The notes beneath the pieces are model-generated. The model had not been told where the DNA came from. It did no database searches and was given only the letters and a program-made list of their open reading frames with translations. Source: Bacilli bacterium (GTDB lineage: Bacteria > Bacillota_I > Bacilli_A > RF39 > UBA660). Taken from it: a DNA stretch of 64,000 bases. The DNA lies in contig JAFSAI010000010.1 of the NCBI GenBank assembly GCA_017441065.1, forward strand, positions 5,378-69,377, read 5' to 3'. Both the position numbers and the translations under genes were made by a program. How positions within the stretch are numbered: the stretch's first letter is position 1; each line of letters opens with the position of its first letter. This document shows positions 5,793-32,930 of the stretch, in pieces.

Positions 5793-7493
5793 ATGAGAGT
5801 TGTTAACAAAAAACTTTGGATAATAACGATAACTTTGTTAGTAGTAATAGAATGTGTGTTTACATATCTATCAGTCAAATCATATGGTAATAAAGATATA
5901 ACTGAGATAAAAGAAGAAAATAAAGTAAATAAAGAAATGTTTTCAATGTATGTAGAAAATAAAGATGGAGAATACGTAGAGTATACAGACAGTGAATACT
6001 ATCCAATAGGATTAAAATATTACTTTAATGAAGAAAGAAGTAATTGTACAGATAATAAAGGAAAAGTAGTAAATGACGTAATATCATATAACAATAATAA
6101 AATCACTGTATCAAGCAATAAAACGCTATATTGCTATTTATACTTTGATTTAGATAAAGTACCACCACAAACATTTACCTTTTACTTAGGAGGAAATACA
6201 AATCCAGAATATATAAATAAAACAAGTACAACAGTATACCTTTCATGGACAGATACAGATATAGAAAGTTATTGTATAAATACCGAGACTAATTCAAGTA
6301 CATGTAATTGGGTAAGTGCAAGTGGTAACTCAGTAACTGCAAGTTATACAATAAGTACACAAGGAAATAATACAAGATATGCATTTATAAGAGATGCAGC
6401 AGAAAATATATCACCAGTAGTAAGTGATAGTGGATTTTTAGATAGTGTAGCACCAGTAATAACAAGTGCAAGTGATAGTGGAGCAGGAACAGCAAATGTA
6501 ACAGTAACAGAAACTGGAAGTGGAGTACAATATGTATGTGTAAATACAAGTAGTTCATCTACTACAGGATGCGTATGGGATGAAGTAAGTGGAACAACAT
6601 TTACAAGTACAACACCAGTAACTACAACAGGTAACTATTACATACATGTTAAAGATAAAGCAGGAAATATAGGACATAGAACTAGTGCTATAAGTATTGC
6701 AAAACCTTTAACGTTTGGTGAATATTTAATAAAAAATAAACCAGCGAATTTAAGTTCAACTTTAGAAGCAGGAATGTATAGATATCAAGGAACATATAAT
6801 ATTGTTAAAAATAACTACATATGTTTTGGAACAAATAATAAATCAACATGTACGGGAAATACAGATGCATATATGTATAGAATCATAGGAATACAAGAAA
6901 ATGGTCAAATGAAGTTAATAAAGAAAGAAGCTTTAAATAGTACAGTACAATGGTGGAGTGATTATACAACAGATGTAACATGGCCAAATAGTTTAATATA
7001 TACAACATTAAATGGAAATGATTTCTTGCTAAACGAAACATATGTGCCAACAGGATGGGAGAATAAAATAGCAACAACAACATGGAAATATGGAGATACA
7101 ACAAAAAGTGGTAGTTATGATGGACCAACAATATATGCAATAGAAAATGCTTGGACAACTACAGTAAGTGCAAAGATAGGATTAATGTATATACATGATT
7201 ATTATTATGCATATGCAAGTGGAGGAGCACCAGGAAGTTCTAGTAATGCAAGAACAGCGTGGATAAATTTAAGTAAAAACGACACAAGTGCACCAAGCGA
7301 GTCAGAATGGACAATGTCGCGTTACGGTCTTGATGGTAGTGCTTACCGTGCGTGGCGTACGGATTCGTACGCTAATATCGTCGCTCCAAACTTTAACAAT
7401 GCTATTTCGGTTCGTCCGTTATTTTATCTTGAATCAAATGTTAAATTAATAGGTGGTTCAGGAACATCAACTGATCCATATTTAATAAATTAA
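5793..7493 (+). CDS. Mosaic surface-protein family member A (signal anchor, head, two Ig-like modules, C-module type I carrying a VR-like segment)
   Basis: 566 aa. It has an N-terminal hydrophobic anchor, modules ending RDAAENIS and KDKAGNIGH, and a C-terminus WTMSRYG..AWR..SVRPLFYL..GGSGTSTDPYLIN. Paralogs start at 21644, 30959 and 41218. Confidence 0.8.
   Translation: MRVVNKKLWIITITLLVVIECVFTYLSVKSYGNKDITEIKEENKVNKEMFSMYVENKDGEYVEYTDSEYYPIGLKYYFNEERSNCTDNKGKVVNDVISYNNNKITVSSNKTLYCYLYFDLDKVPPQTFTFYLGGNTNPEYINKTSTTVYLSWTDTDIESYCINTETNSSTCNWVSASGNSVTASYTISTQGNNTRYAFIRDAAENISPVVSDSGFLDSVAPVITSASDSGAGTANVTVTETGSGVQYVCVNTSSSSTTGCVWDEVSGTTFTSTTPVTTTGNYYIHVKDKAGNIGHRTSAISIAKPLTFGEYLIKNKPANLSSTLEAGMYRYQGTYNIVKNNYICFGTNNKSTCTGNTDAYMYRIIGIQENGQMKLIKKEALNSTVQWWSDYTTDVTWPNSLIYTTLNGNDFLLNETYVPTGWENKIATTTWKYGDTTKSGSYDGPTIYAIENAWTTTVSAKIGLMYIHDYYYAYASGGAPGSSSNARTAWINLSKNDTSAPSESEWTMSRYGLDGSAYRAWRTDSYANIVAPNFNNAISVRPLFYLESNVKLIGGSGTSTDPYLIN
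7317..7419 (+). repeat. VR-like segment 1 (diverged match to the template-like repeat at 21024-21132; two codons shorter)
   Basis: It opens with tcgcgttacggt and closes with tcggttcgtccg. It is CpG-rich and adenine-poor in an AT-rich gene. Codons vary where the template-like repeat has AAY. Confidence 0.4.
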
Positions 7494-7558
7494 CAATCGT
7501 CAACGAAGACGTTAAAATAGACTTAACCCTTCGGAAGATAGAGATATCTTCCTTTTTT
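7494..7558 (+). terminator. Conserved post-stop element (caatcgtcaacgaagacgttaaaatag) plus a rho-independent terminator
   Basis: The element is shared by all four paralogs. The hairpin ggaagatagagatatcttcc (7533-7552) is followed by a T-run. Confidence 0.6.
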
Positions 7559-10335: not shown

Positions 10336-12461
10336 TGAAAGATAAAGAAATAACATTTGAAATGTTTTATAGTAGATTAAAAACTACTAATGAAATATCT
10401 TTAAATAAAATAAAAGAAGCATATGAATATGCGTTAAAAGAACATGAAGGTAAAAAAAGATTAAGTGGGGATGATTATATAACTCATCCACTTCATGTAG
10501 CGAATATATTAATAGATTTAAATGTAGATGACACAACAATTATTGCTGCTATTTTACATGAAGTTTTAAATAATGGAGAAACAGCTACTAAAGAAATTCT
10601 AGAAAATAAGTTTGGACACGATGTTGCTAAAATAGTAGATAGTGTTTCTAAAATTAATAAACTAGAATTAGTAGATGAAACAGAATCTAGTGCTATATAT
10701 TTAAGAAAAGTATTAGTAGGTCTTGCTGAAGATCCTAGAGTACTTTATATAAAACTAGCAGATAGACTTCATAATATGCGAACTAATTGGGCCATAAAAG
10801 AAGAAAAACAAAAAGATAAAGCTAAAGAAACTATGGCTGTTTTAGTGCCAATTGCTCATCGCTTAGGTATTAATTCTATTAAGGGCGAACTTGAAGATAT
10901 TTGTTTAAGAATATTAAAACCAGATGTTTATCAAGATATATTAGAAAAATTAAATAAAACAACAATGGAACTTAATGATAATCTTTTAGAAATGAAAGAT
11001 AACTTATCACATTTGCTTAATGAAAATGGAATTAATCACCAAATTAAAGGTAGAGTAAAAAGTGTTTATAGTATTTATAATAAACTTAATAATGGTAAAA
11101 AATATAGTGATATTTATGATATTTTAGCATTACGTATATTTGTAGATAAAGAAACAGATTGTTATACAGTTATTGGTTTAATTCATTCAAAATATAGACC
11201 TGTACCAAAAAGATTTAAAGATTATATAGCAAACCCAAAAGAAAATATGTATCAAAGTTTACATACTACAGTATTTGGTAATGATGGGGAAGTTTATGAA
11301 GTACAAGTTCGTACTTATGAAATGGATGAAATAGCTGAAAAAGGTATTGCATCTCACTGGTCTTATAAAGAAAAAGGTTCTAAAAAAGTTCAAGCGATAA
11401 TGGAACAAAAATTAGAGATGTTTAGAAACATCATTGAAACAAATAGTGATGAAAATGACGCTTCTTTTGAAAATGCAATGAATAATGATCTTCTTGGTGA
11501 ACTTATTTATGTATTTACACCAAAAGGTGATGTTATTGAACTGCCTAAAGATTCTACACCAGTAGACTTTGCATATCGTATTCATAGTGGTGTTGGAGAT
11601 ACAACAGTAGGTGCTATTGTAAATGATAATATTGTTCCTTTATCTTATGCACTTCAAAATAATGATATAGTTAAAGTTATTACTAATAATAATGCAACAC
11701 CAAATCAAGACTGGTTAAATTTTGTTAAAACTCCACAAGCTAAAACTAAAATTAAATCTTATTTCAGTAAAAAAGATCGAGAATCTTATATTGAAAAAGG
11801 TAAAAATATTTTAGAAAAAGAAATTAGAAAAAGAAAATTAAGTATAAGTGAAGTTTTAAGTGATTCTAATTTGAATAAGATATATAAAGATTTAAAAATG
11901 GAATCTCTAGAAGATTTATATTTATCCATTGGATCTCTTCGATATACTGCTGGTTATATAATAAATTTAACTACTGAAGACAAACAAAATGTAGATGATA
12001 TATTAATTGAAAAGATAAAACCTACAATAATTCATCACACTAAAGATGATGTTATTGTTGATGGTAATACAAATATTATGTATTCTTTAGCTAAATGTTG
12101 TAAACCAGTTAAAGGCGATGAAATAATTGGTTTTATTACTAAAGGTGAAGGTGTATCAGTACATAAAAAAGGATGTATGAATACTAAAACAAATGAAGAT
12201 AGATTAATCAAAGTAGAATGGAATGAAGAAGTAGAAAATACATATTTAAGTGATATATCTATTTTAGTTAATAATCAAAATTTCTTGATGGATTTAATAA
12301 CTGAATCAACTAAAGAAAAGATTCATATTGTAGAAATGCATAATAAAGATACCGAATTTGGTACTATATGTAATTTAACTGTTAAAGTAAAAAATAAAGA
12401 CGAATTAGTACATTTTAAAAATCAAATTTCAAAATTTAAAAATGTTAAAGTTATGGAGTAA
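10335..12461 (+). CDS. relA: Bifunctional (p)ppGpp synthetase/hydrolase Rel
   Basis: It has an HD domain (HPLHVANIL..DRLHNMRT), a synthetase motif (YQSLHTTV), and TGS and ACT regions. Confidence 0.95.
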   Translation: MKDKEITFEMFYSRLKTTNEISLNKIKEAYEYALKEHEGKKRLSGDDYITHPLHVANILIDLNVDDTTIIAAILHEVLNNGETATKEILENKFGHDVAKIVDSVSKINKLELVDETESSAIYLRKVLVGLAEDPRVLYIKLADRLHNMRTNWAIKEEKQKDKAKETMAVLVPIAHRLGINSIKGELEDICLRILKPDVYQDILEKLNKTTMELNDNLLEMKDNLSHLLNENGINHQIKGRVKSVYSIYNKLNNGKKYSDIYDILALRIFVDKETDCYTVIGLIHSKYRPVPKRFKDYIANPKENMYQSLHTTVFGNDGEVYEVQVRTYEMDEIAEKGIASHWSYKEKGSKKVQAIMEQKLEMFRNIIETNSDENDASFENAMNNDLLGELIYVFTPKGDVIELPKDSTPVDFAYRIHSGVGDTTVGAIVNDNIVPLSYALQNNDIVKVITNNNATPNQDWLNFVKTPQAKTKIKSYFSKKDRESYIEKGKNILEKEIRKRKLSISEVLSDSNLNKIYKDLKMESLEDLYLSIGSLRYTAGYIINLTTEDKQNVDDILIEKIKPTIIHHTKDDVIVDGNTNIMYSLAKCCKPVKGDEIIGFITKGEGVSVHKKGCMNTKTNEDRLIKVEWNEEVENTYLSDISILVNNQNFLMDLITESTKEKIHIVEMHNKDTEFGTICNLTVKVKNKDELVHFKNQISKFKNVKVME

Positions 12462-12464
12462 TAT

Positions 12465-12908
12465 ATGAAAGTAGTTATACAAAGAAGTAAAAATAGTAAT
12501 GTTATTATTGATAATAAAGTATACAACGAAATATCTCATGGTTTGGTTGTATTATCTTGTTTTACTGAAGGTGATACCCTAGAAGATATTAATTACATAG
12601 TTAAAAAAATTACTAATTTAAGAATATTCGATGATGAAAATGGTATTATGAATAAAAGTATAATTGATATTTCTGGAAAAATATTATCTATTAGTCAATT
12701 TACATTATATGCTGATACAAAAAAAGGCAATAGACCTAGTTACATAAAAGCTTTAAATGGAACTGAAGCAATAAAATTATATGATTTATTTAATGAAGAA
12801 TTAAATAAGATTGTTCCAACTGTTACTGGAATTTTTGGAGCAGATATGCTACTTAATATAACAAATGATGGTCCAGTTACTATAATAATTGATAGTAAAA
12901 ACAAATAA
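12465..12908 (+). CDS. dtd: D-aminoacyl-tRNA deacylase
   Basis: MKVVIQR.., SQFTLYADTKKGNRPS and the C-terminal NDGPVTI motif. It follows relA. Confidence 0.9.
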   Translation: MKVVIQRSKNSNVIIDNKVYNEISHGLVVLSCFTEGDTLEDINYIVKKITNLRIFDDENGIMNKSIIDISGKILSISQFTLYADTKKGNRPSYIKALNGTEAIKLYDLFNEELNKIVPTVTGIFGADMLLNITNDGPVTIIIDSKNK

Positions 12909-20861: not shown

Positions 20862-20990
20862 TAAGGAGAGGTGGAAAATTTTGCTGCGTCCACACGCCTG
20901 TATGGTCGAAAAGAGATGGAGTAGAAGGCGGCGGCTCCCCCCTCACAAAAAATAATGACTAATCAATTTGATTAGTTTTTTTCTTTTTTA
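20862..20990 (+). ncRNA. Unassigned GC-rich small RNA candidate with its own promoter and terminator
   Basis: The upstream promoter is TTGCAA, a 17-nt spacer, then TAAATA (20829-20857). The body is GC-rich (ggcggcggctcccccctcac) in an AT-rich background. The terminator is actaatcaatttgattagt plus a T-run (20959-20982). Confidence 0.35.
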
Positions 20991-20996
20991 TATAAT
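20968..20996 (+). promoter_or_regulatory. Sigma-A-type promoter driving the noncoding template-like repeat
   Basis: TTGATT (20968-20973), a 17-nt spacer, then TATAAT (20991-20996). No ORF follows. Confidence 0.5.
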
Positions 20997-21023
20997 GTAT
21001 ATAGGTAATCTTATGATAAAGAG

Positions 21024-21132
21024 TCGCGTTACGGTTATAATTCCAGCAATAGTCGTTACAATGCGTGGAATGTGAATTCGAGCGGTAACTTGAATAACAA
21101 TAATTTGAATAATGCTAATTCGGTTCGCCCAG
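21024..21132 (+). repeat. DGR-like template repeat (TR) candidate, noncoding and Asn-codon rich
   Basis: 109 nt with no start codon and a stop upstream in frame. By hand count, 14 of 36 codons are AAT/AAC. It has the same length as 22667-22775 and shares its ends (tcgcgttacggt at the 5' end, tcggttcgcccag at the 3' end). Confidence 0.45.
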
Positions 21133-21271
21133 CCCACTATAACTTGAATGATAATATGGTTAAGACTATATTTTTGGGAAGATAGAGGACAAAGATTATC
21201 TAGGACTTTTTTCCAAACAAAAAACGGAGATGGTTTATTTTACGAAATAACCTATTACTCCGTTATTTTTT

Positions 21272-21466
21272 TTATAGAGATTTAATATATTGTGCAACAT
21301 CTTCGTCACTAATATCTAATATAATTATTAATTTTTTTAATGTTTGTAGAGATGGCAAACTTTTTTCTTTTTCAATTCTTTGCATTTGTCGCCATGTAAT
21401 TTCTATTTTATCCGCAAGTTCTTCTTGAGTTAAACCTCGCTTAATTCTGTACTCTTTAAATAACAT
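21272..21466 (-). CDS. XRE-family HTH regulator, divergent from family member B
   Basis: A 64-aa Cro/CI-type HTH (RIKRGLTQEELADKIEITWRQMQRIEKEK). It is a paralog of 30630-30821. Confidence 0.8.
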   Translation of the reverse strand: MLFKEYRIKRGLTQEELADKIEITWRQMQRIEKEKSLPSLQTLKKLIIILDISDEDVAQYIKSL

Positions 21467-21643: not shown

Positions 21644-22849
21644 ATGAATGGGTTAAGTAAAGTAAGTGTTAGGATTACTATAAGCTTACTAATTATAATA
21701 GAACTTTGTTCTTTATTTTTAGTATATAAGTCTTTTAGTAATAGAAAAATTAATGAAATTAAGGATATTAATACTGTAAATTCTAATAAATTTGCAATGT
21801 ATATAGAACAAGATGATGGTAGTTATAGTGAATATACTGAAGGTAATTTATTTACAATAGATGGCTACATTTTTAATTTAGAAAAATCTAATTGTGTAGA
21901 TAACAAAGGTAATATTGTAAATGATGCATTAACAAATAATGGCAACAAAATTACTATATCAAGTAACAAAACTAGTTATTGCTATTTGTATTTTAGTTTA
22001 CCACCAAATTTATATGATGTGTGTGGAAGTTATGATAAAATGAGTTCTTGTGTAGCAAATGAAAATATTTCTCAGATTGAAGGGGTTAATTCAATAGAAG
22101 CAGGAATGTATAGATATCAAGGAACAGATGCAATGAACTATGTTTGTTTCGGAACAACAGTAAAAAGCGAATGTGTAGGAAATACAGATGCATATATGTA
22201 TAGAATAATAGGAATAAGACCAAATGGCCAAATGAAACTGATAAAAAAAGAAGCACTAAATACTGGAGTAAAATGGTGGGATAATTACACAGATAATATA
22301 GAATGGCCAAGCAGTAATATATATACAACATTAAACGGAAATGATTACTTGTTAAACGAAACATATGTGCTAACAGGATGGGAAAGTAAAATAGCAACAA
22401 CAAGTTGGTATTATGGAGATACAACAACTAATGGTAATTATGACGGAGCAACAATGTATCCGATAGAAAACCCATTCGGAGAATCCACAGCATCAAATAG
22501 ATTCACAAAGACAGTAAGCGCAAAGATAGGATTAATGTATATACATGATTTTTACTATGCATATGCAAGTGGAGGAGCACCAGGAAGTTCTAGTAATGCC
22601 GTAACAGCATGGATCCATTTAAGTAAAAATGATACAAGTGCACCAATTGGTACTGAATGGCCAATGTCGCGTTACGGTCTTAATGGTAGTAATGGTTATT
22701 ACTATGCGTGGCGTGTGTATTCGAACGGTTATGTCACTAGTACTATTTTGAACTATGCTTATTCGGTTCGCCCAGTCTTCTATCTGACATCCGATGTAGA
22801 GATAACAGGTGGAACAGGAATATTAACCGATCCATTTTTAATAAATTAA
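21644..22849 (+). CDS. Mosaic surface-protein family member B (signal anchor, head, C-module type I carrying a VR-like segment)
   Basis: 401 aa. Its C-terminal roughly 250 aa closely match member A, ending SVRPVFYLTSDVEITGGTGILTDPFLIN. Confidence 0.8.
   Translation: MNGLSKVSVRITISLLIIIELCSLFLVYKSFSNRKINEIKDINTVNSNKFAMYIEQDDGSYSEYTEGNLFTIDGYIFNLEKSNCVDNKGNIVNDALTNNGNKITISSNKTSYCYLYFSLPPNLYDVCGSYDKMSSCVANENISQIEGVNSIEAGMYRYQGTDAMNYVCFGTTVKSECVGNTDAYMYRIIGIRPNGQMKLIKKEALNTGVKWWDNYTDNIEWPSSNIYTTLNGNDYLLNETYVLTGWESKIATTSWYYGDTTTNGNYDGATMYPIENPFGESTASNRFTKTVSAKIGLMYIHDFYYAYASGGAPGSSSNAVTAWIHLSKNDTSAPIGTEWPMSRYGLNGSNGYYYAWRVYSNGYVTSTILNYAYSVRPVFYLTSDVEITGGTGILTDPFLIN
22667..22775 (+). repeat. VR-like segment 2 (same length as the template-like repeat)
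   Basis: Its ends are identical to 21024-21132. Internal codons differ mainly where the template has AAY (for example aat to cgt, tat, act or att). The scaffold codons lack adenine. Confidence 0.5.
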
Positions 22850-22947
22850 TAATCGTCAACGAAGACGTTAAAATAGATTAAAATTTAATAAGGTATTTAT
22901 ATTACCTTAACCCTTTGAAAGCATGGTAACGCGTGCTTTCTTTTTTT
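22850..22947 (+). terminator. Conserved post-stop element plus terminator (member B)
   Basis: aatcgtcaacgaagacgttaaaatag (22851-22876), then the hairpin gaaagcatggtaacgcgtgctttc and a T-run. Confidence 0.6.
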
Positions 22948-24522: not shown

Positions 24523-25479
24523 ATGGAAAAGTGTATTGAAGGTGCTAAACGATTAATTGAGCATCAAATAAAAAATAAACAAATTTGTAATGTTGGAGAA
24601 TCTTTTGCAGAATATCAAAAGGTTTATGCATGGACAAATGAATATATTAAAGGGTATCTTGATTTAGTTAGTTTTGCTGATAAAGATAGTGCTCTTGCAG
24701 TTATGGCTAGTGGAGACCATGCTTTTAATTTAATTGAAAAAGGAATAAGGACTGTTGATACTTTTGATACTAATAGATTGACTGAGTTTTATGCCTTAGG
24801 CTTAAAAAGAGCGATGATTTTAAAATACGATTATAAAACTTTTTTAGAAGTTACTCAAAGATTATATTCTGATGATATTACAATAGATGAAATATCTGAA
24901 ATAGTGTTTGGTTTGCTTCCTTTTATGGATAGAAAACATGCAATTTATTGGAGAAATATAATTGATTTTAATATGCATATTCAAAGAGAAAATAATACTA
25001 GTTTAAATTTATTTAGAATGTTAAATTTTGCTAATAATTTTGAAAATATGGATTTATTAAATAATTATTTAGTTGATGAGGAACATTATGAAAGATTAAG
25101 AAATTGTTTGGGATCTGCAAATATTACTTTTAAATGTGCCAATGCAATGAATTTAGAAAGCGAATTTAATTCCCAATATGACTTCATTTTGCTTTCTAAT
25201 ATATTAGATTATTTTTCTATTCGTTGGAAATTTGATTGGGATTATGAAAAATTAAAGAAATATGAAGAATCACTTAAGAACATCTTAAAACCCGAAGGAA
25301 TAATATTTTTGAAATATATTATGCTTCATGGAATAACTGATAAAATGGTAAAAACAACAGTTATTGGTAATCACTTAGTAACATCAAAAGATTTAACTGA
25401 TGAAGAAATTGTTAATTTACCAGCATTACCTGGTAACAAAGCATTTAGTGGTATGGTTTTACTTAGAAAGAAGAAGTAA
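24523..25479 (+). CDS. DUF3419/BtaA-like SAM-methyltransferase-fold protein, paralog 1
   Basis: ASGDHAFNLIEKGI..VDTFDTN..LGLKRAMILKYDY..FILLSNILDY..PEGIIFLKY. It is one of three paralogs. Confidence 0.4.
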   Translation: MEKCIEGAKRLIEHQIKNKQICNVGESFAEYQKVYAWTNEYIKGYLDLVSFADKDSALAVMASGDHAFNLIEKGIRTVDTFDTNRLTEFYALGLKRAMILKYDYKTFLEVTQRLYSDDITIDEISEIVFGLLPFMDRKHAIYWRNIIDFNMHIQRENNTSLNLFRMLNFANNFENMDLLNNYLVDEEHYERLRNCLGSANITFKCANAMNLESEFNSQYDFILLSNILDYFSIRWKFDWDYEKLKKYEESLKNILKPEGIIFLKYIMLHGITDKMVKTTVIGNHLVTSKDLTDEEIVNLPALPGNKAFSGMVLLRKKK

Positions 25480-25482
25480 TAT

Positions 25483-26430
25483 ATGGAAAAATGCATTGAG
25501 GGTGCAAAAAGATTAATAAATAAACAAGTCCATGATAATAGAGTATCTCTTTTTGGTATTTCTTTTTCAGAATATCACAAATCATATTATTGGACTAATG
25601 AGAATATAAAAGGATATTTAGACAAGGTTGATTTTGAAGGTAAAGATAATGCTTTGTCGGTATTAGCAAGTGGGGATCATATTTTTAATTTAGTTGAAAA
25701 AGGAATTACTAATATAGATACTTTTGATACAAATAAGTTAACTGAATATTATGCTTTAGGTTTTAAAAATGCAATGATATTAAAATATAGTTATGAAGAA
25801 TTTATTCAATACATGCAAATAATTAGTAGTGATAATATTTCTTTAGAATATTTAACAGAGTTATTGTTATCTTTATTGCCTTATATGGACAAAAAATATA
25901 GAGTTTTTTGGCGTGAAATTATTGAATATAATTATAAAATTCAAAAAGAAATGGGAACGAATTTAAATCTATTTCAAATGCTATGTATTAATTTAGGTGT
26001 TATAGATGCTAGAATTTGTTACAACAATTATTTATCTAGTAAAGAAAATTATGAAGAATTTAAGAATAGATTAATGTTAGCAAACATTACCTTTAAAGAA
26101 GCTAATGCATATAGATTAGAAGCGGAATTTGATTCTACTTATGACTTTGTTCTGCTTTCAAATATATTAGACTATTTTGATAAATACTTTGGCAAAGGTT
26201 GGAGTTATGATTGTTTAAAACTATATGAAAAAAGAATAAGTTCATTAGTTAAACCAGAAGGTATTATATTTTTACATTATATATTTGATTATAATTCTTT
26301 TGATAGGAATGCTAATTTAATTACCGATTCAAGCATTTCTCAACGTACTTTAAAAGGAGGAGAAGTTGTTTTATTGCCTAGCGATTATGATGCTTTAGAT
26401 GTAGGAATGATTTTAAAAAGAGTTAAATAA
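25483..26430 (+). CDS. DUF3419/BtaA-like SAM-methyltransferase-fold protein, paralog 2
   Basis: Tandem paralog of 24523-25479 with the same MEKCIEGAKRLI start and the same motifs. Confidence 0.4.
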   Translation: MEKCIEGAKRLINKQVHDNRVSLFGISFSEYHKSYYWTNENIKGYLDKVDFEGKDNALSVLASGDHIFNLVEKGITNIDTFDTNKLTEYYALGFKNAMILKYSYEEFIQYMQIISSDNISLEYLTELLLSLLPYMDKKYRVFWREIIEYNYKIQKEMGTNLNLFQMLCINLGVIDARICYNNYLSSKENYEEFKNRLMLANITFKEANAYRLEAEFDSTYDFVLLSNILDYFDKYFGKGWSYDCLKLYEKRISSLVKPEGIIFLHYIFDYNSFDRNANLITDSSISQRTLKGGEVVLLPSDYDALDVGMILKRVK

Positions 26431-27821: not shown

Positions 27822-27904
27822 CATAAACTTTACATTAGTAATAGTATATTTCTTGTTAAAATCATAGTTATTTGGTATTATATTCAGACATTGAGGTGAT
27901 TACT

Positions 27905-28867
27905 ATGATTAGAGCTATAATATATGCTAAGAAAATAATTGAACGTCAAGTTAAGAAAAATGATTATGAAATGATTAGTGAAGATTTTTCTAAATATCAA
28001 AAAGGTTTTTATTGGACTAATGAAAATATTGATCATTGTTTAGGAATGGTTAATTTAAAAGAAAAAAATAATGCTTTAGCAGTAGCTTCTACTGGTGATC
28101 ATGCATTTAATTTGATTGCTAATGGAATTAATGATATAGATACTTTTGATATTAATAGATTAACTGAATTTTTAGTTTTAGGACTAAAAAGAGCAATGAT
28201 AGAAGTATATAATTATTATGAATTTTTAGCTATGCAAAATTTACTAGCAGATCCTGCAGTTTCTTTGGAACAACTTACAGATATAATTATGAGTTTAACA
28301 TATCATATGGATACAAAATATAGAATATTTTGGCGTGAAATTGCTGATTATAATTATAAAATTCAAAAGAAATATGGGACAAACTTAAATTTAATTCATA
28401 TGTTATATATTAATGTTTTTGCATTATCATGCCATTTAAATAATAATACATATTTATATGATGAATATTTTTATGAAGATTTTAGAAACAAATTAGGTAA
28501 AGCTAATATTACATTTAAAGGTGCTGATGCTCTTGATTTAGCCACATCTTTTAAAGGTAGAAAATATGATGTAATTATGCTTTCAAACATTTTAGATTAT
28601 GCTAATACTAGATGGGGAAATGGTTGGGGTATTAATGAACTAGAGGCATACATTAAATCATTAGAAGGTATTTCTAATGAAGATGCTGTATTATTTATAA
28701 AATATATTCTTTCATATATAAATAGTGGAGTAGTAAAGAAACATATTTTCCATGATTCATCAATTGTTTCTGATGAAATTACTGATAAAATTTATTCTGT
28801 ACCAAAACATTCTAGTTCTAGAGAAATTGATGGAATAATATTAAGACGAGTTAAAATTGACAAATAA
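27905..28867 (+). CDS. DUF3419/BtaA-like SAM-methyltransferase-fold protein, paralog 3
   Basis: STGDHAFNLIANGI..IDTFDIN..VIMLSNILDY. The RBS gaggtga precedes the ATG at 27905. Confidence 0.4.
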   Translation: MIRAIIYAKKIIERQVKKNDYEMISEDFSKYQKGFYWTNENIDHCLGMVNLKEKNNALAVASTGDHAFNLIANGINDIDTFDINRLTEFLVLGLKRAMIEVYNYYEFLAMQNLLADPAVSLEQLTDIIMSLTYHMDTKYRIFWREIADYNYKIQKKYGTNLNLIHMLYINVFALSCHLNNNTYLYDEYFYEDFRNKLGKANITFKGADALDLATSFKGRKYDVIMLSNILDYANTRWGNGWGINELEAYIKSLEGISNEDAVLFIKYILSYINSGVVKKHIFHDSSIVSDEITDKIYSVPKHSSSREIDGIILRRVKIDK

Positions 28868-30958: not shown

Positions 30959-32863
30959 ATGATAAAAAAATATTCTAAAGTTTTAATTGTTTTACTTTTA
31001 TTAGTTGAATTTACATTTGTGTTTTTAAGTATTAAATCATTTAATAATAAAGATATAAAAGAAATCAAAGAAGAAAATAAAGTAAATAAAGAAATGTTTT
31101 CGATGTATGTAGAAAATAAAGATGGAGAATATGAGGAATATACAGATAGTGAGTACTATCCCATAGGATTAAAATACTACTTTAATGAAGAAAGAAGTAA
31201 TTGTACAGATAATAAAGGTAAAGTAATAAACGATGTAATATCATACAACAATAATAAGATAACAGTTAGTAGTAATAAAACATTATTCTGTTATTTGTAC
31301 TTTGACTTAGATAAAATACCTCCCCAAACATTTACCTTCTACTTAGGAGGAAATACTAATCCAGAATATATAACTAGTACAAGTACAACAGCATATCTAT
31401 CATGGACAGATAATGATATAGAAAGTTATTGTATAAATACTGAAAATAATTCAAGTACATGTAATTGGGTAAATACAAGTGGAAATACAATAACCCCAAG
31501 TTATACAATAAGTACACAAGGAAGTAATACAAGATATGCATTCATAAGAGATGCAGCAGAAAATATATCACCAGTAGTAAGTGACAGTGTATTCTTAGAT
31601 AGTGTAGCACCAGTAATAACAAGCGCAAGTGATAGTGGAGCAGGAACAGCAAATGTAACCGTTACAGAAACAGGAAGTGGAGTAACATATGTATGTGTAA
31701 ATCAAAGTAGTACATCTACAACAGGATGTACATGGGATGAAGTAAGTGGAACAACATTTACAAGTACAACAGCGGTAACAGCAACAGGTAGTTATTATAT
31801 CCATGTTAAAGATAAAGCAGGAAACATAGGGCATAAAACAAGTGCGATAAGTATTGCTAAACCAGTTTGGAATTTATATACATTATGTTCAAAATATAGC
31901 AACATAGATTTATGTGAACAAAATGAAAATTTGGAAGATGTTGATGGAATATGGAATAGTACATTAGAAGATGATGGTTACCGATATGTAGGAACAAATC
32001 CAAATAACTATGTATGTTTTGGAACAACAAATAAATCAACATGTACAGGGAATACAGACTTGTATATGTATAGAATAATAGGAATATTTGAAGATAGTTC
32101 AGGCAACCAACACTTGAAACTAATAAAAAAAGAAGCATTAAACACTAAATATAAGATGCATAGTACGTATAGCGTAGACATAGATTGGGATGAAATGCAA
32201 TTGTATAAAGAAATAAATGGCAGTTATTTTCTAACAAACACAACATATAGTTATATGCAAAATAGTGCTTGGTTAGAAAAAATCAGTAATTGGGATTGGA
32301 CTGCGGCTAATTCAGGATATTATCCTAATCATGGTTCTAATTATTATTACATGACTCCACAAGCTGTATACATACACGAACTAAATCGAAGCACAAAAAC
32401 AAATCAAAAATGTTACAATAATTATAGTTCCAACGGTTTTACAACAGCAGATTGTAGTGTAGGAGAATGGAAAGAAGTAACAACAAAAATAGGATTAATG
32501 TATGTAAGTGATTATATGTTATCTTTAGGGGCAAGTTTTTTAGATTTATGGTGTGGAAATTATAATTTAGGAGCGGCGTCACTAAATACTGAAGCTGTTT
32601 CAAATGTGTTAAAAACAGGTTGGCTGAATTTGAAAAATAGCGATTCTTCTCCTCCTAATCCAGGAGAATGGACAATGACAATTGCTGGAGCCACTTCCAA
32701 TCCTATTGAATATGCCTATATTATAAATACTAATGGTACAATAGTAGTAACTGGAATTGCAGGAACTAATAATTGGTCAGTTCGCCCAGTCTTCTATCTG
32801 ACATCTGATATAAAAATTACTGGAGGAACAGGCTCATCAACCGATCCATTCCTAATAAATTAA
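30959..32863 (+). CDS. Mosaic surface-protein family member C (signal anchor, head, two Ig-like modules, C-module type II)
   Basis: 634 aa. The N-terminal roughly 300 aa are near-identical to member A. The C-terminal half resembles member D and ends SVRPVFYLTSDIKITGGTGSSTDPFLIN. Confidence 0.8.
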   Translation: MIKKYSKVLIVLLLLVEFTFVFLSIKSFNNKDIKEIKEENKVNKEMFSMYVENKDGEYEEYTDSEYYPIGLKYYFNEERSNCTDNKGKVINDVISYNNNKITVSSNKTLFCYLYFDLDKIPPQTFTFYLGGNTNPEYITSTSTTAYLSWTDNDIESYCINTENNSSTCNWVNTSGNTITPSYTISTQGSNTRYAFIRDAAENISPVVSDSVFLDSVAPVITSASDSGAGTANVTVTETGSGVTYVCVNQSSTSTTGCTWDEVSGTTFTSTTAVTATGSYYIHVKDKAGNIGHKTSAISIAKPVWNLYTLCSKYSNIDLCEQNENLEDVDGIWNSTLEDDGYRYVGTNPNNYVCFGTTNKSTCTGNTDLYMYRIIGIFEDSSGNQHLKLIKKEALNTKYKMHSTYSVDIDWDEMQLYKEINGSYFLTNTTYSYMQNSAWLEKISNWDWTAANSGYYPNHGSNYYYMTPQAVYIHELNRSTKTNQKCYNNYSSNGFTTADCSVGEWKEVTTKIGLMYVSDYMLSLGASFLDLWCGNYNLGAASLNTEAVSNVLKTGWLNLKNSDSSPPNPGEWTMTIAGATSNPIEYAYIINTNGTIVVTGIAGTNNWSVRPVFYLTSDIKITGGTGSSTDPFLIN

Positions 32864-32930
32864 CAATCGTCAACGAAGACGTTAAAATAGAAAACTTAAC
32901 CCTTGAGAGTACGAAAGTACTCTCGTTTTT
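32864..32930 (+). terminator. Conserved post-stop element plus terminator (member C)
   Basis: caatcgtcaacgaagacgttaaaatag (32864-32890), then the hairpin gagagtacgaaagtactctc (32905-32924) and a T-run. Confidence 0.6.

Follow-up and report, generated by a model that had tools for sequence, protein, structure and literature searches.

A 64,000-nucleotide (nt) stretch of an AT-rich Bacilli genome (G000:C1:5378-69377, hereafter the window) contains a surface-protein gene, at positions 21644 to 22849, that switches abruptly near its 3' end to codons that lack adenine and are rich in CpG. We find that codons of this kind mark the template repeats (TRs) and variable regions (VRs) of a diversity-generating retroelement (DGR). 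The original prediction had read the locus as a DGR, and rightly so: a DGR-type reverse transcriptase (RT) is encoded beside Avd-like and MutS-like genes, the changes between TRs and VRs are adenine specific, and the target protein is predicted to be lectin-like. We consider it probable that the A-free, G/C-ending, and hence CpG-rich codons are the invariant scaffold of the DGR template and that two layers of constraint act on the TR, one at the level of the protein and one at the level of the nucleic acid.

A-free, CpG-rich codons single out the repeats of a retroelement

The window belongs to a 1.21-Mb assembly of 44 contigs that is 95% complete. Whole-genome composition is 25.9% G+C and 37.8% A, with a CpG observed/expected ratio of 0.49. 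Three segments of the window share a core that starts with TCGCGTTACGGT and ends with TTCGGTTCG(C/T)CC. Two of them, at 22667-22774 and 7317-7418, are VRs and lie at the 3' ends of the paralogous genes 21644..22849 and 5793..7493; the third, at 21024-21131, is a TR and lies in noncoding DNA between gatB and a small XRE-type regulator gene. In the VR at 22667, half of the 36 codons (18) are A-free, 4 are AAY, and the other 14 also contain A; CpG occurs 9 times. In the VR at 7317, 20 of 34 codons are A-free, and 14 CpG fall within 102 nt. Read as codons, the TR has 13 that are AAY, 16 that are A-free, and 7 that contain A otherwise; it includes 9 CpG. The G+C content of these patches is 39 to 50%, compared to 25.9% for the genome. 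The 51 codons that precede the VR in gene 21644..22849 include 6 A-free codons and 2 CpG; over the whole gene, A-free codons make up 18/36 in the VR and 59/365 elsewhere (Fisher p = 1.1e-5). The maximum-likelihood CpG-rich segment of the gene is 22667-22792, and its left edge is the first base of TR homology.

Our codon background was a set of 1,124 nonoverlapping open reading frames (ORFs) of at least 100 aa, which hold 353,855 codons and cover 88% of the genome. A-free codons account for 20.2% of this total. The codons used in the scaffold are rare genome-wide: TCG is 2% of Ser codons, GCG 5% of Ala, CGT 13% and CGC 1% of Arg, TTG 9% of Leu, and GTG 6% of Val. CpG observed/expected reaches 2.0-2.3 in the six TRs of the genome, compared to the genome value of 0.49. 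When the 1,124 ORFs were scanned in 36-codon windows (315,639 in all), the mean was 0.84 CpG per window (standard deviation, 1.02), and the six highest peaks, with 9 to 14 CpG, were the six VRs of one surface-protein family. Only 86 of these windows had at least 9 CpG; the six VR genes account for 82 of them and a single mraZ gene for the other 4. Requiring at least 18 A-free codons together with at least 9 CpG selected exactly the six VR ORFs and 0 of the 1,118 others. A strand-blind scan of 108-nt windows returned 17 loci with at least 9 CpG, 12 of which were the six TRs and the six VRs. The other five comprised four loci that resemble tRNA genes in sequence (putative) and one in mraZ.

Two simpler signatures were rejected. 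The A-free count does not suffice by itself, as 51 further ORFs also reach 18 A-free codons in some window. When ORFs were ranked by a z-score for synonymous avoidance of A, the six VR genes took places 2, 4, 5, 6, 8, and 11, and five unrelated ORFs (encoding a laccase-domain protein, SecA, a UvrD-type helicase, and two proteins of no known family) scored similarly.

Set against the genome-wide background, these counts bear out the anomaly that had been described by hand, including the 14 CpG of the 7317 segment, the 16 A-free codons among the 23 non-AAY codons of the noncoding copy, and the exact 5' edge of the switch, at 22667, where TR homology begins. The joint criterion and the CpG scans pick almost only TRs and VRs; hence, similar patches are not common in unrelated genes, the outcome that the original prediction had named as the one that would count against it. 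Two of its statements need revision. Normal usage was said to resume after cgcccag, but rare codons (GTC TTC TAT CTG ACA TCC) go on for approximately 17 nt, to 22792. The pattern was also held to support a DGR independently of the mismatch spectrum. For the VRs this fails in part: adenine mutagenesis itself lowers their A content (one cognate TR has 16/34 A-free codons and its VR has 21/34), so the A-poverty of VRs is partly a direct product of A-to-N mutagenesis and is not independent of that spectrum.

Silent positions of TR scaffolds avoid A and favor G and C

A TR is never rewritten, and VRs only copy it. Hence, the constraint must act on the TR. Among the Ala, Gly, Val, Pro, Ser, Arg, and Leu codons of the window TR, 15/19 are A-free, compared to 6.6 expected (p = 4e-5). 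Only 1/14 of its fourfold codons ends in A, compared to 5.8 expected (p = 5e-3), and of the remaining 13, 7 have G or C in the third position, compared to 1.9 expected (p = 1e-3).

We searched 200 other genomes of the same family, of which 16 matched, some of them by short flank matches only. Inspection of 10 relative loci yielded TRs in seven genomes, each of another genus, and these were pooled with the window TR into a set of eight genera (loci L012-L016, L022, and L025 and window 21024-21131). Across the eight genera, synonymous choice was A-free at 109/125 codons, compared to 52.3 expected. Fourfold third positions were A at 6/119, compared to 52.1 expected (p = 4.5e-22), and were otherwise G at 61, C at 26, and T at 26, while the frequencies for the genome are 0.045 for G, 0.037 for C, 0.461 for T, and 0.456 for A. 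G+C at the pooled sites is 73%, compared to 8% in the genome; T is depleted too. The scaffold third positions turn over among G, C, and T from genus to genus (for example, GGT, GGC, and GGG), staying A-poor and G/C-rich. Among the AAY codons of these TRs, 39/99 are AAC, compared to 11% of Asn codons genome-wide.

Each TR has 9 to 10 CpG, of which Arg CGN codons supply 2 to 3, NCG codons 3 to 6, and C-G junctions at codon boundaries 2 to 3. CpG itself was rejected as a target of selection: the amino acids together with the pooled third-base frequencies predict 56.8, and 61 were observed (p = 0.19). Hence, CpG richness is a by-product of G/C-ending codons, of Arg CGN, and of a scaffold rich in Ser, Ala, Gly, and Arg.

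Adenine-directed mutagenesis had been offered as the explanation of the pattern. It does explain why the TR scaffold avoids A, as the 15/19 A-free choices (p = 4e-5) attest, but it is not a full account. A is avoided at silent fourfold sites, T is under-used, only 2 to 3 CpG per TR come from the obligatory Arg CGN, and rare codons run on into the untemplated sequence behind the VR, which resembles a site at which mutagenic homing is initiated (IMH). A is avoided even where an A-to-N change would be silent, and protein constancy is therefore not the whole story. The passages returned by a full-text literature search state the general principle, and none of them puts figures on the avoidance of A at silent sites of TR scaffolds or on their preference for G/C.

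The RT locus

Judged by sequence, the genome carries a complete DGR on another contig (C26), with MutS-like, Avd-like, and RT genes, together with six stand-alone TR units. The genome-wide inventory comprises one RT, six noncoding AAY-rich TRs, and six coding VRs. The single match to RVT_1 (PF00078) in the genome is on C26 (E = 5e-18; 64.6 bits compared to a cutoff of 29.6). Its best solved relative is 8ub7_A (E = 2.2e-24), which we take to be the Bordetella phage RT-Avd-RNA particle; group II intron RTs come next (1.8e-10). The RT translation contains IGNMTSQ and YMDD, and the former fits [I/L/V]GxxxSQ, a motif that is presumably DGR specific. An Avd-like ORF of 118 aa overlaps the start of the RT gene (PF22296 bAvd, E = 5.9e-6; NF033474, E = 1e-9), and directly upstream of it lies a MutS_I-like ORF of 129 aa (L010:6084-6473 on G000:C26; PF01624, E = 1.5e-5, 25.6 bits compared to a cutoff of 20.6).

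An ORF of 178 aa with a CdiA_C domain (L010:5092-5628 on G000:C26; E = 2.4e-15) lies between two TR units of this contig. This toxin domain belongs to systems by which bacteria inhibit each other's growth on contact (contact-dependent growth inhibition). Downstream of TR C7:54934 the sequence resembles that after TR C26:14764, and a similar CdiA_C gene may follow there.

TR/VR pairs differ at adenines

Three pairings displayed the adenine-specific spectrum. Between TR C26:~15720 and VR C26:14461, A sites have changed at 15/28 positions and other sites at 1/74. For TR C7:54934 and VR C38:14720, the values are 11/34 and 2/71. The window TR and VR C26:22507 differ at 17/33 A sites and at 7/75 others; all 7 non-A differences lie in the 5' third, and over the 3' two-thirds there are 11 A-site changes and no other. 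The VR that neighbors the window TR, at 22667-22774, does not have it as its template: 13/33 A sites and 13/75 non-A sites differ, and we rejected this pairing.

The 5' third of VR 7317 fits TR G000:C7:31767 (5 A-site changes and 0 non-A changes), but its 3' part does not. These VRs are apparently mosaics of different TRs. In the accessible text of two published accounts (PMC3240598, PMC5758913), initiation at the 3' side is fixed and integration at the 5' side depends on homology; partial conversion from the 3' end is therefore predicted by the published mechanism. As for the 5' third of the VR at 22667 (22667-22702), it is the same as TR G000:C7:31767 apart from an A-site change and a 6-nt (two-codon) insertion after AAT, which has the look of an indel that arose in copying. 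In three near-orthologs, all from other samples, we saw 42-50% identity in the VR segment, compared to 83-91% before the VR. Such low identity fits hypervariation of the segment.

At the 3' end of the repeats, TTCGGTTCGCCCAG is common to 6/6 TRs and 5/6 VRs and is followed by TCTTCTATCTGACATC in VRs and by CCCACTATAACTTGAAT in TRs. This shared block with divergence behind it is, as predicted from the alignment, an IMH/IMH* arrangement.

TRs lie in conserved stand-alone units

The six TR loci, when aligned, are conserved over approximately 290 nt, from a TATAAT box to a hairpin with a T run. Each unit comprises a leader, the TR, a sequence resembling IMH*, a hairpin that carries compensatory changes, and a terminator-like stem. 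The TATAAT box is the first block conserved across all six units. The hairpin at 21154-21171 covaries among them (A-U to G-C and U-A to C-G), as does the stem of the terminator-like hairpin that precedes a T run at 21224-21273; a strict terminator scan made no call in 21132..21273. Pairing between AGGTAATCTT in the leader and AAGATTATCT behind the TR would close the TR in a long-range helix. The RNAalifold consensus structure has few pairs within the TR core. A-free blocks common to the six TRs are one of approximately 7 nt at the 5' end (TCGCGTT), TGCGTGG in the middle, and the 12-nt block TTCGGTTCGCCC at the 3' end. The units are dispersed over four contigs, two of them near the RT and four on other contigs.

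The related genome G038 has eight TR-like units in tandem, over approximately 1.9 kb at a contig end (L031 ~10978-12600, G038:C29, minus strand). The structured 3' element is present in some of these units and absent in others. No RT was found in the part of this contig that was searched; CofD and WhiA genes follow the array, and a MutS_I ORF of 141 aa (L031:9966-10391; E = 1.1e-13) lies beside it.

Two proposed layers of constraint on the template

We propose that one RT-Avd pair would copy the small stand-alone TR RNAs in trans, misreading only template adenines, and that the cDNA would overwrite the last ~35 codons of lectin-fold surface-protein genes. The codon pattern would be maintained in the TR; VRs would inherit it by copying and would lose it once copying stops. 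The codon counts demonstrate the first layer, at the protein level: a residue that is to be kept constant is written without A, which forces CGN for Arg, TTG or CTN for Leu, and TCN for Ser. At the nucleic acid level, we infer a second layer, in which silent A avoidance and the use of G or C over T preserve blocks of identity between the cDNA and its target. A mutagenized cDNA could pair reliably with the old VR only at the non-A positions of the TR. Removing silent A and replacing T by G or C would lengthen and stabilize the blocks in a 26% GC genome, and 3' initiation followed by homology-dependent 5' integration of the cDNA would need such blocks. In the accessible text of Guo et al. 2011 (PMC3240598), 5' integration of the cDNA requires 8 bp or more over which TR and VR are identical, and it works better with 19 bp or more; that of Wu et al. 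2018 (PMC5758913) describes GC-rich undiversified flanks on both sides of the mutagenized region and TR adenines mostly at codon positions 1 and 2. Consistent with a second layer, rare G/C-ending codons extend into the untemplated IMH, and the 12-nt A-free 3' block is present in all six TRs.

Several points weigh against this interpretation. Its second layer draws on composition and on requirements published for the Bordetella phage element. The pooled p-values overstate independence because the eight TR lineages are homologous. G exceeds C at the silent sites (61 versus 26; p = 0.005 versus the genome G:C ratio), which duplex stability alone does not predict; this asymmetry may be an RNA-level or polymerase-level effect. 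Two VRs, one of them at 22667-22774, and two TRs are without a clean partner in an assembly that is 95% complete. A hairpin or cruciform after the VR found no support: the DNA fold of 22764-22815 (-5.2 kcal/mol) has z = -0.57, and 54/200 shuffles were as good. Finally, the Avd-like ORF scores below both curated cutoffs (27.2 bits compared to 40 for PF22296, and 38.7 compared to 80 for NF033474).

Perhaps the constancy of the scaffold amino acids alone yields A-free, CpG-rich codons? A-free synonymous choice is strongly enriched in TRs, as pure protein-level avoidance of adenine would have it, and the switch of Arg from AGA to CGN forces 2 to 3 CpG per TR. The principle is also stated in the DGR literature (PMC6328139; bioRxiv 10.1101/2024.11.15.621889), and the accessible text of the second source has the remaining VR codons encode unmodified scaffold residues. 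However, this account predicts neither the silent fourfold A-avoidance (6/119 compared to 52 expected) nor the T deficit (26/119 compared to 46% in the genome) and 73% G+C, and it leaves the rare codons of the untemplated IMH unexplained. One TR, moreover, has GGA where its VR has GGG, a silent A that is both tolerated and mutagenized. We regard protein constancy as unlikely to be sufficient. The G excess on the sense (RNA) strand (61 versus 26) would suit a constraint of another kind, in which silent G serves the folding of the TR RNA or its processive, faithful copying by RT-Avd and not the pairing of cDNA with target. The TR is predicted to be part of a structured RNA in which a helix closes it and hairpins covary, and extensive RNA-protein and RNA-RNA contacts in RT-Avd-RNA are described in the accessible part of bioRxiv 10.1101/2023.10.23.563531. 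That so few pairs fall in the TR core of the predicted consensus structure speaks against this idea. G-ending codons, considered as an RT context effect, were not significantly commoner before A-starting codons (28/47 compared to 30/64; p = 0.25, with small numbers), and such an effect found no support; in a phage system, non-A substitutions amount to 0-0.5% whatever the base, according to the available passages of PMC6182149. A constraint from the RNA or the polymerase instead of from pairing thus seems to us rather improbable.

The patches, at 39-50% GC in a genome of 25.9% GC, might also be thought a compositional relic, that is, a TR/VR module from a GC-richer donor that has not yet drifted to host composition; Wu et al. 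2018 (PMC5758913), in the text available, report atypical GC in ~20% of DGRs and much horizontal transfer. A relic of this sort is very hard to reconcile with the rest of the element. The RT gene (20.7% GC) and the Avd-like gene (21.3%) are below the mean of 25.8% for coding sequences, the target genes outside the VR are at ~30% GC, and the switch is sharp, falling on the first base of TR homology. Scaffold third positions turn over among eight genera yet remain G/C-rich and A-poor, and paralogs that lost the VR drifted toward host codon usage. Nor do we give credence to an explanation without any retroelement, by which ordinary paralogs and pseudogene fragments were homogenized by gene conversion. 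The family does number 11 or more paralogs in this genome, which share long stretches, but the data contradict this explanation: differences in cognate pairs are adenine specific, the noncoding copies are AAY-rich and have a common promoter box and structured 3' RNA in six occurrences, and an RT with Avd-like and MutS-like neighbors is present.

To return to the proposed two-layer constraint, the A-free blocks may act as shared recombination anchors as well as scaffold, with VRs assembled as mosaics of different templates. We put this extension forward tentatively, as possible though doubtful. The cDNA of any TR could begin at the 3' block common to the VRs and then cross back at one of the blocks further inside, and mosaics, including loops of different length, would come on top of adenine mutagenesis. 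If true, this would be a cassette-shuffling layer not described for DGRs.

Target proteins and their paralogs

Searches of the target proteins against Pfam and NCBIfam assigned no family. An AlphaFold2 model of the 401-aa protein (mean pLDDT of 89.6, from a 63-sequence alignment) was compared to solved structures. The C-terminal domain matches the C-terminal domain of Legionella Lcl (8q4e; Z = 7.5, 123 residues aligned by VIA-align), approximately 40 C-type lectin domains with Z = 5-6, and the Treponema DGR variable protein TvpA (2y3c) with Z = 5.4. From the model, the C-terminal domain is predicted to have a C-type-lectin-like fold with the VR at its C-terminal end, although Z values below 8 are modest. 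The best structural match overall is the N-terminal domain (residues 32-303) of an IgA peptidase of Thomasclavelia ramosa (9qa6; Z = 15.8), which covers model residues 130-401 with 204 residues aligned at 16% identity.

In five paralogs without a VR, the homologous segment has 9-17 A-free codons and 1-7 CpG, compared to 18-23 and 9-14 in VRs; the two richest of the five look, by their sequence, like decaying former VRs. The window paralog at 30959..32863 is without the core, yet it keeps GTTCGCCCAGTCTTCTATCTGACATC (32781-32806, 26 bases), a sequence in rare codons that the VR genes have unchanged in their IMH region. This gene may be a former or latent target. A conserved block, AATCGTCAACGAAGACGTTAAAATAG, follows the stop codon of three window paralogs (7494-7521, 22850-22877, and 32864-32891). 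The 4-bp stem in this 3' untranslated block was no better than shuffles (z = -0.02).

Relation to known DGRs

The element belongs to a known kind of DGR and is closest to chromosomal DGRs that carry a MutS-like (MSL) gene and have remote targets. The accessible text of Wu et al. 2018 (PMC5758913) defines "Architecture D" as DGRs with an MSL accessory gene and names the Legionella DGR as an MSL carrier. Like Architecture D in that text, our element has small MutS_I-like and Avd-like ORFs and an RT in a row, is chromosomal and not phage-like with targets on other contigs, and has TR adenines mostly at codon positions 1-2 and GC-rich undiversified flanks. The likeness extends to the target, whose C-terminal domain resembles that of Legionella Lcl (Z = 7.5). 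The MSL proteins of this genome and of G038 consist of MutS domain I only and correspond to the MSL accessory class of that paper, as far as it is described there. In the DGRs that its available passages treat, however, TRs are usually directly adjacent to the RT gene, whereas here a single RT goes with six TRs. Four of these lie on contigs other than that of the RT, and every TR has a self-contained unit in which it is preceded by a putative promoter and followed by structured 3' RNA and a terminator-like hairpin.

The DGR of Bordetella phage BPP-1 (mtd-avd-TR-brt), which has been reconstituted in a laboratory strain of E. coli (PMC12875486), is alike in several respects. About half of TR adenines are changed (15/28 here and ~50% in the accessible part of PMC6182149), the diversified codons are AAY, and the VR is C-terminal in a target of lectin-type fold. 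In both, a GC-rich 3' block is common to TR and VR and is followed by diverging IMH and IMH*, and structured RNA, here predicted, lies downstream of the TR, as in the Sp region. Unlike BPP-1, the present element resides in a 26% GC chromosome and not in a phage, has several templates and several targets, shows no convincing hairpin after the VR (22764-22815, z = -0.57), and has a 12-nt 3' GC block (TTCGGTTCGCCC) in place of a 14-bp GC-only element.

DGRs with several TRs are described in the accessible text of Yan et al. 2019 (PMC6642488), for example, that of Stenotrophomonas sp. SKA14, with two TRs and six VRs. Like our element, they have multiple TRs, and their RT has several targets that are DUF1566-like or lectin-like. 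The differences from the cases in that text are that six TRs are spread over four contigs here, that the VRs are apparently mosaic, and that the relative G038 has eight units in tandem. What we add is an inventory of one RT, six trans TR units, and six VRs; the tandem array of G038; and a quantification of silent sites. The supplementary tables of the Wu and Yan papers, beyond the text available, may list multi-TR cases.

Features and neighbors in the window

Features of the window are listed in Table 1. Between the TR unit and the target gene, and divergent from the latter, lies a gene for a 64-aa XRE-type helix-turn-helix protein (21272-21466, minus strand; PF01381, E = 5.6e-12). Between gatB and the TR unit there is a match to the skipping-rope RNA (RF02924; 20861-20946, plus strand; 40.4 bits compared to a gathering score of 36.7). 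We rejected this RNA as a component of the unit, as only 1/6 TR units has a match and conservation does not extend upstream of the TATAAT box; the sequence there is unrelated in the other five units, and hence the RNA is probably an independent neighbor. Elsewhere in the window, a 241-nt repeat occurs in three copies with 73% identity (24603-24843, 25563-25803, and 27985-28225), inside the adjacent ORFs 24523..25479, 25483..26430, and 27872..28867 (~315-331 aa), an unrelated cluster of paralogs.

Table 1. Coordinates of DGR-related features in the window
Feature	Position	Strand	Remarks
Second target paralog, 566 aa	5793..7493	+	VR at 7317..7418
Decaying VR	7317..7418	+	Mutated 3' end CGTCCGTTATTTT
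Promoter-like site of TR unit	20968..20996	+	TTGATT, 17-nt spacer, TATAAT; 10/12 positions in consensus scan; predicted
Predicted 5' leader of TR RNA	21003..21023	+	AGGTAATCTT pairs with AAGATTATCT at 21192-21201 (RNAalifold, six units)
Template repeat (TR)	21024..21131	+	36 in-frame codons; template of VR G000:C26:22507 over 3' two-thirds
IMH*-like sequence (GCCCACTATAAC...) and conserved structured 3' region	21132..21273	+	Six-copy alignment, covarying pairs
Target gene, membrane-anchored surface protein, 401 aa	21644..22849	+	C-type-lectin-like C-terminal domain (predicted)
VR of gene 21644..22849	22667..22774	+	Residues 342-377 of 401; no TR in the assembly differs at adenines only
IMH-like sequence (G TCTTCTATCTGACATCCGAT)	22775..22795	+	Directly after TR homology; rare G/C-ending codons not templated by TR
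Paralog without VR, natural control	30959..32863	+	Homologous 37 codons: 9 A-free, 1 CpG

Significance

The A-free, CpG-rich pattern is a useful but largely expected signature of a DGR, and codon statistics confirm its templates and targets. In very AT-rich genomes, the joint scan (18 or more A-free codons combined with 9 or more CpG per 36 codons) finds VRs and TRs without alignment; here it recovered 6/6 VR genes. The silent preference of the scaffold for G and C, approximately ninefold over host usage and present in eight genera, points to nucleic acid constraints, whether homology blocks or needs of the RNA and RT, and such constraints on the TR are relevant to the reprogramming of DGRs for directed evolution. 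This bacterium offers a natural system in which one RT is accompanied by six predicted genes for trans-acting template RNAs and by VRs that are apparently mosaic.

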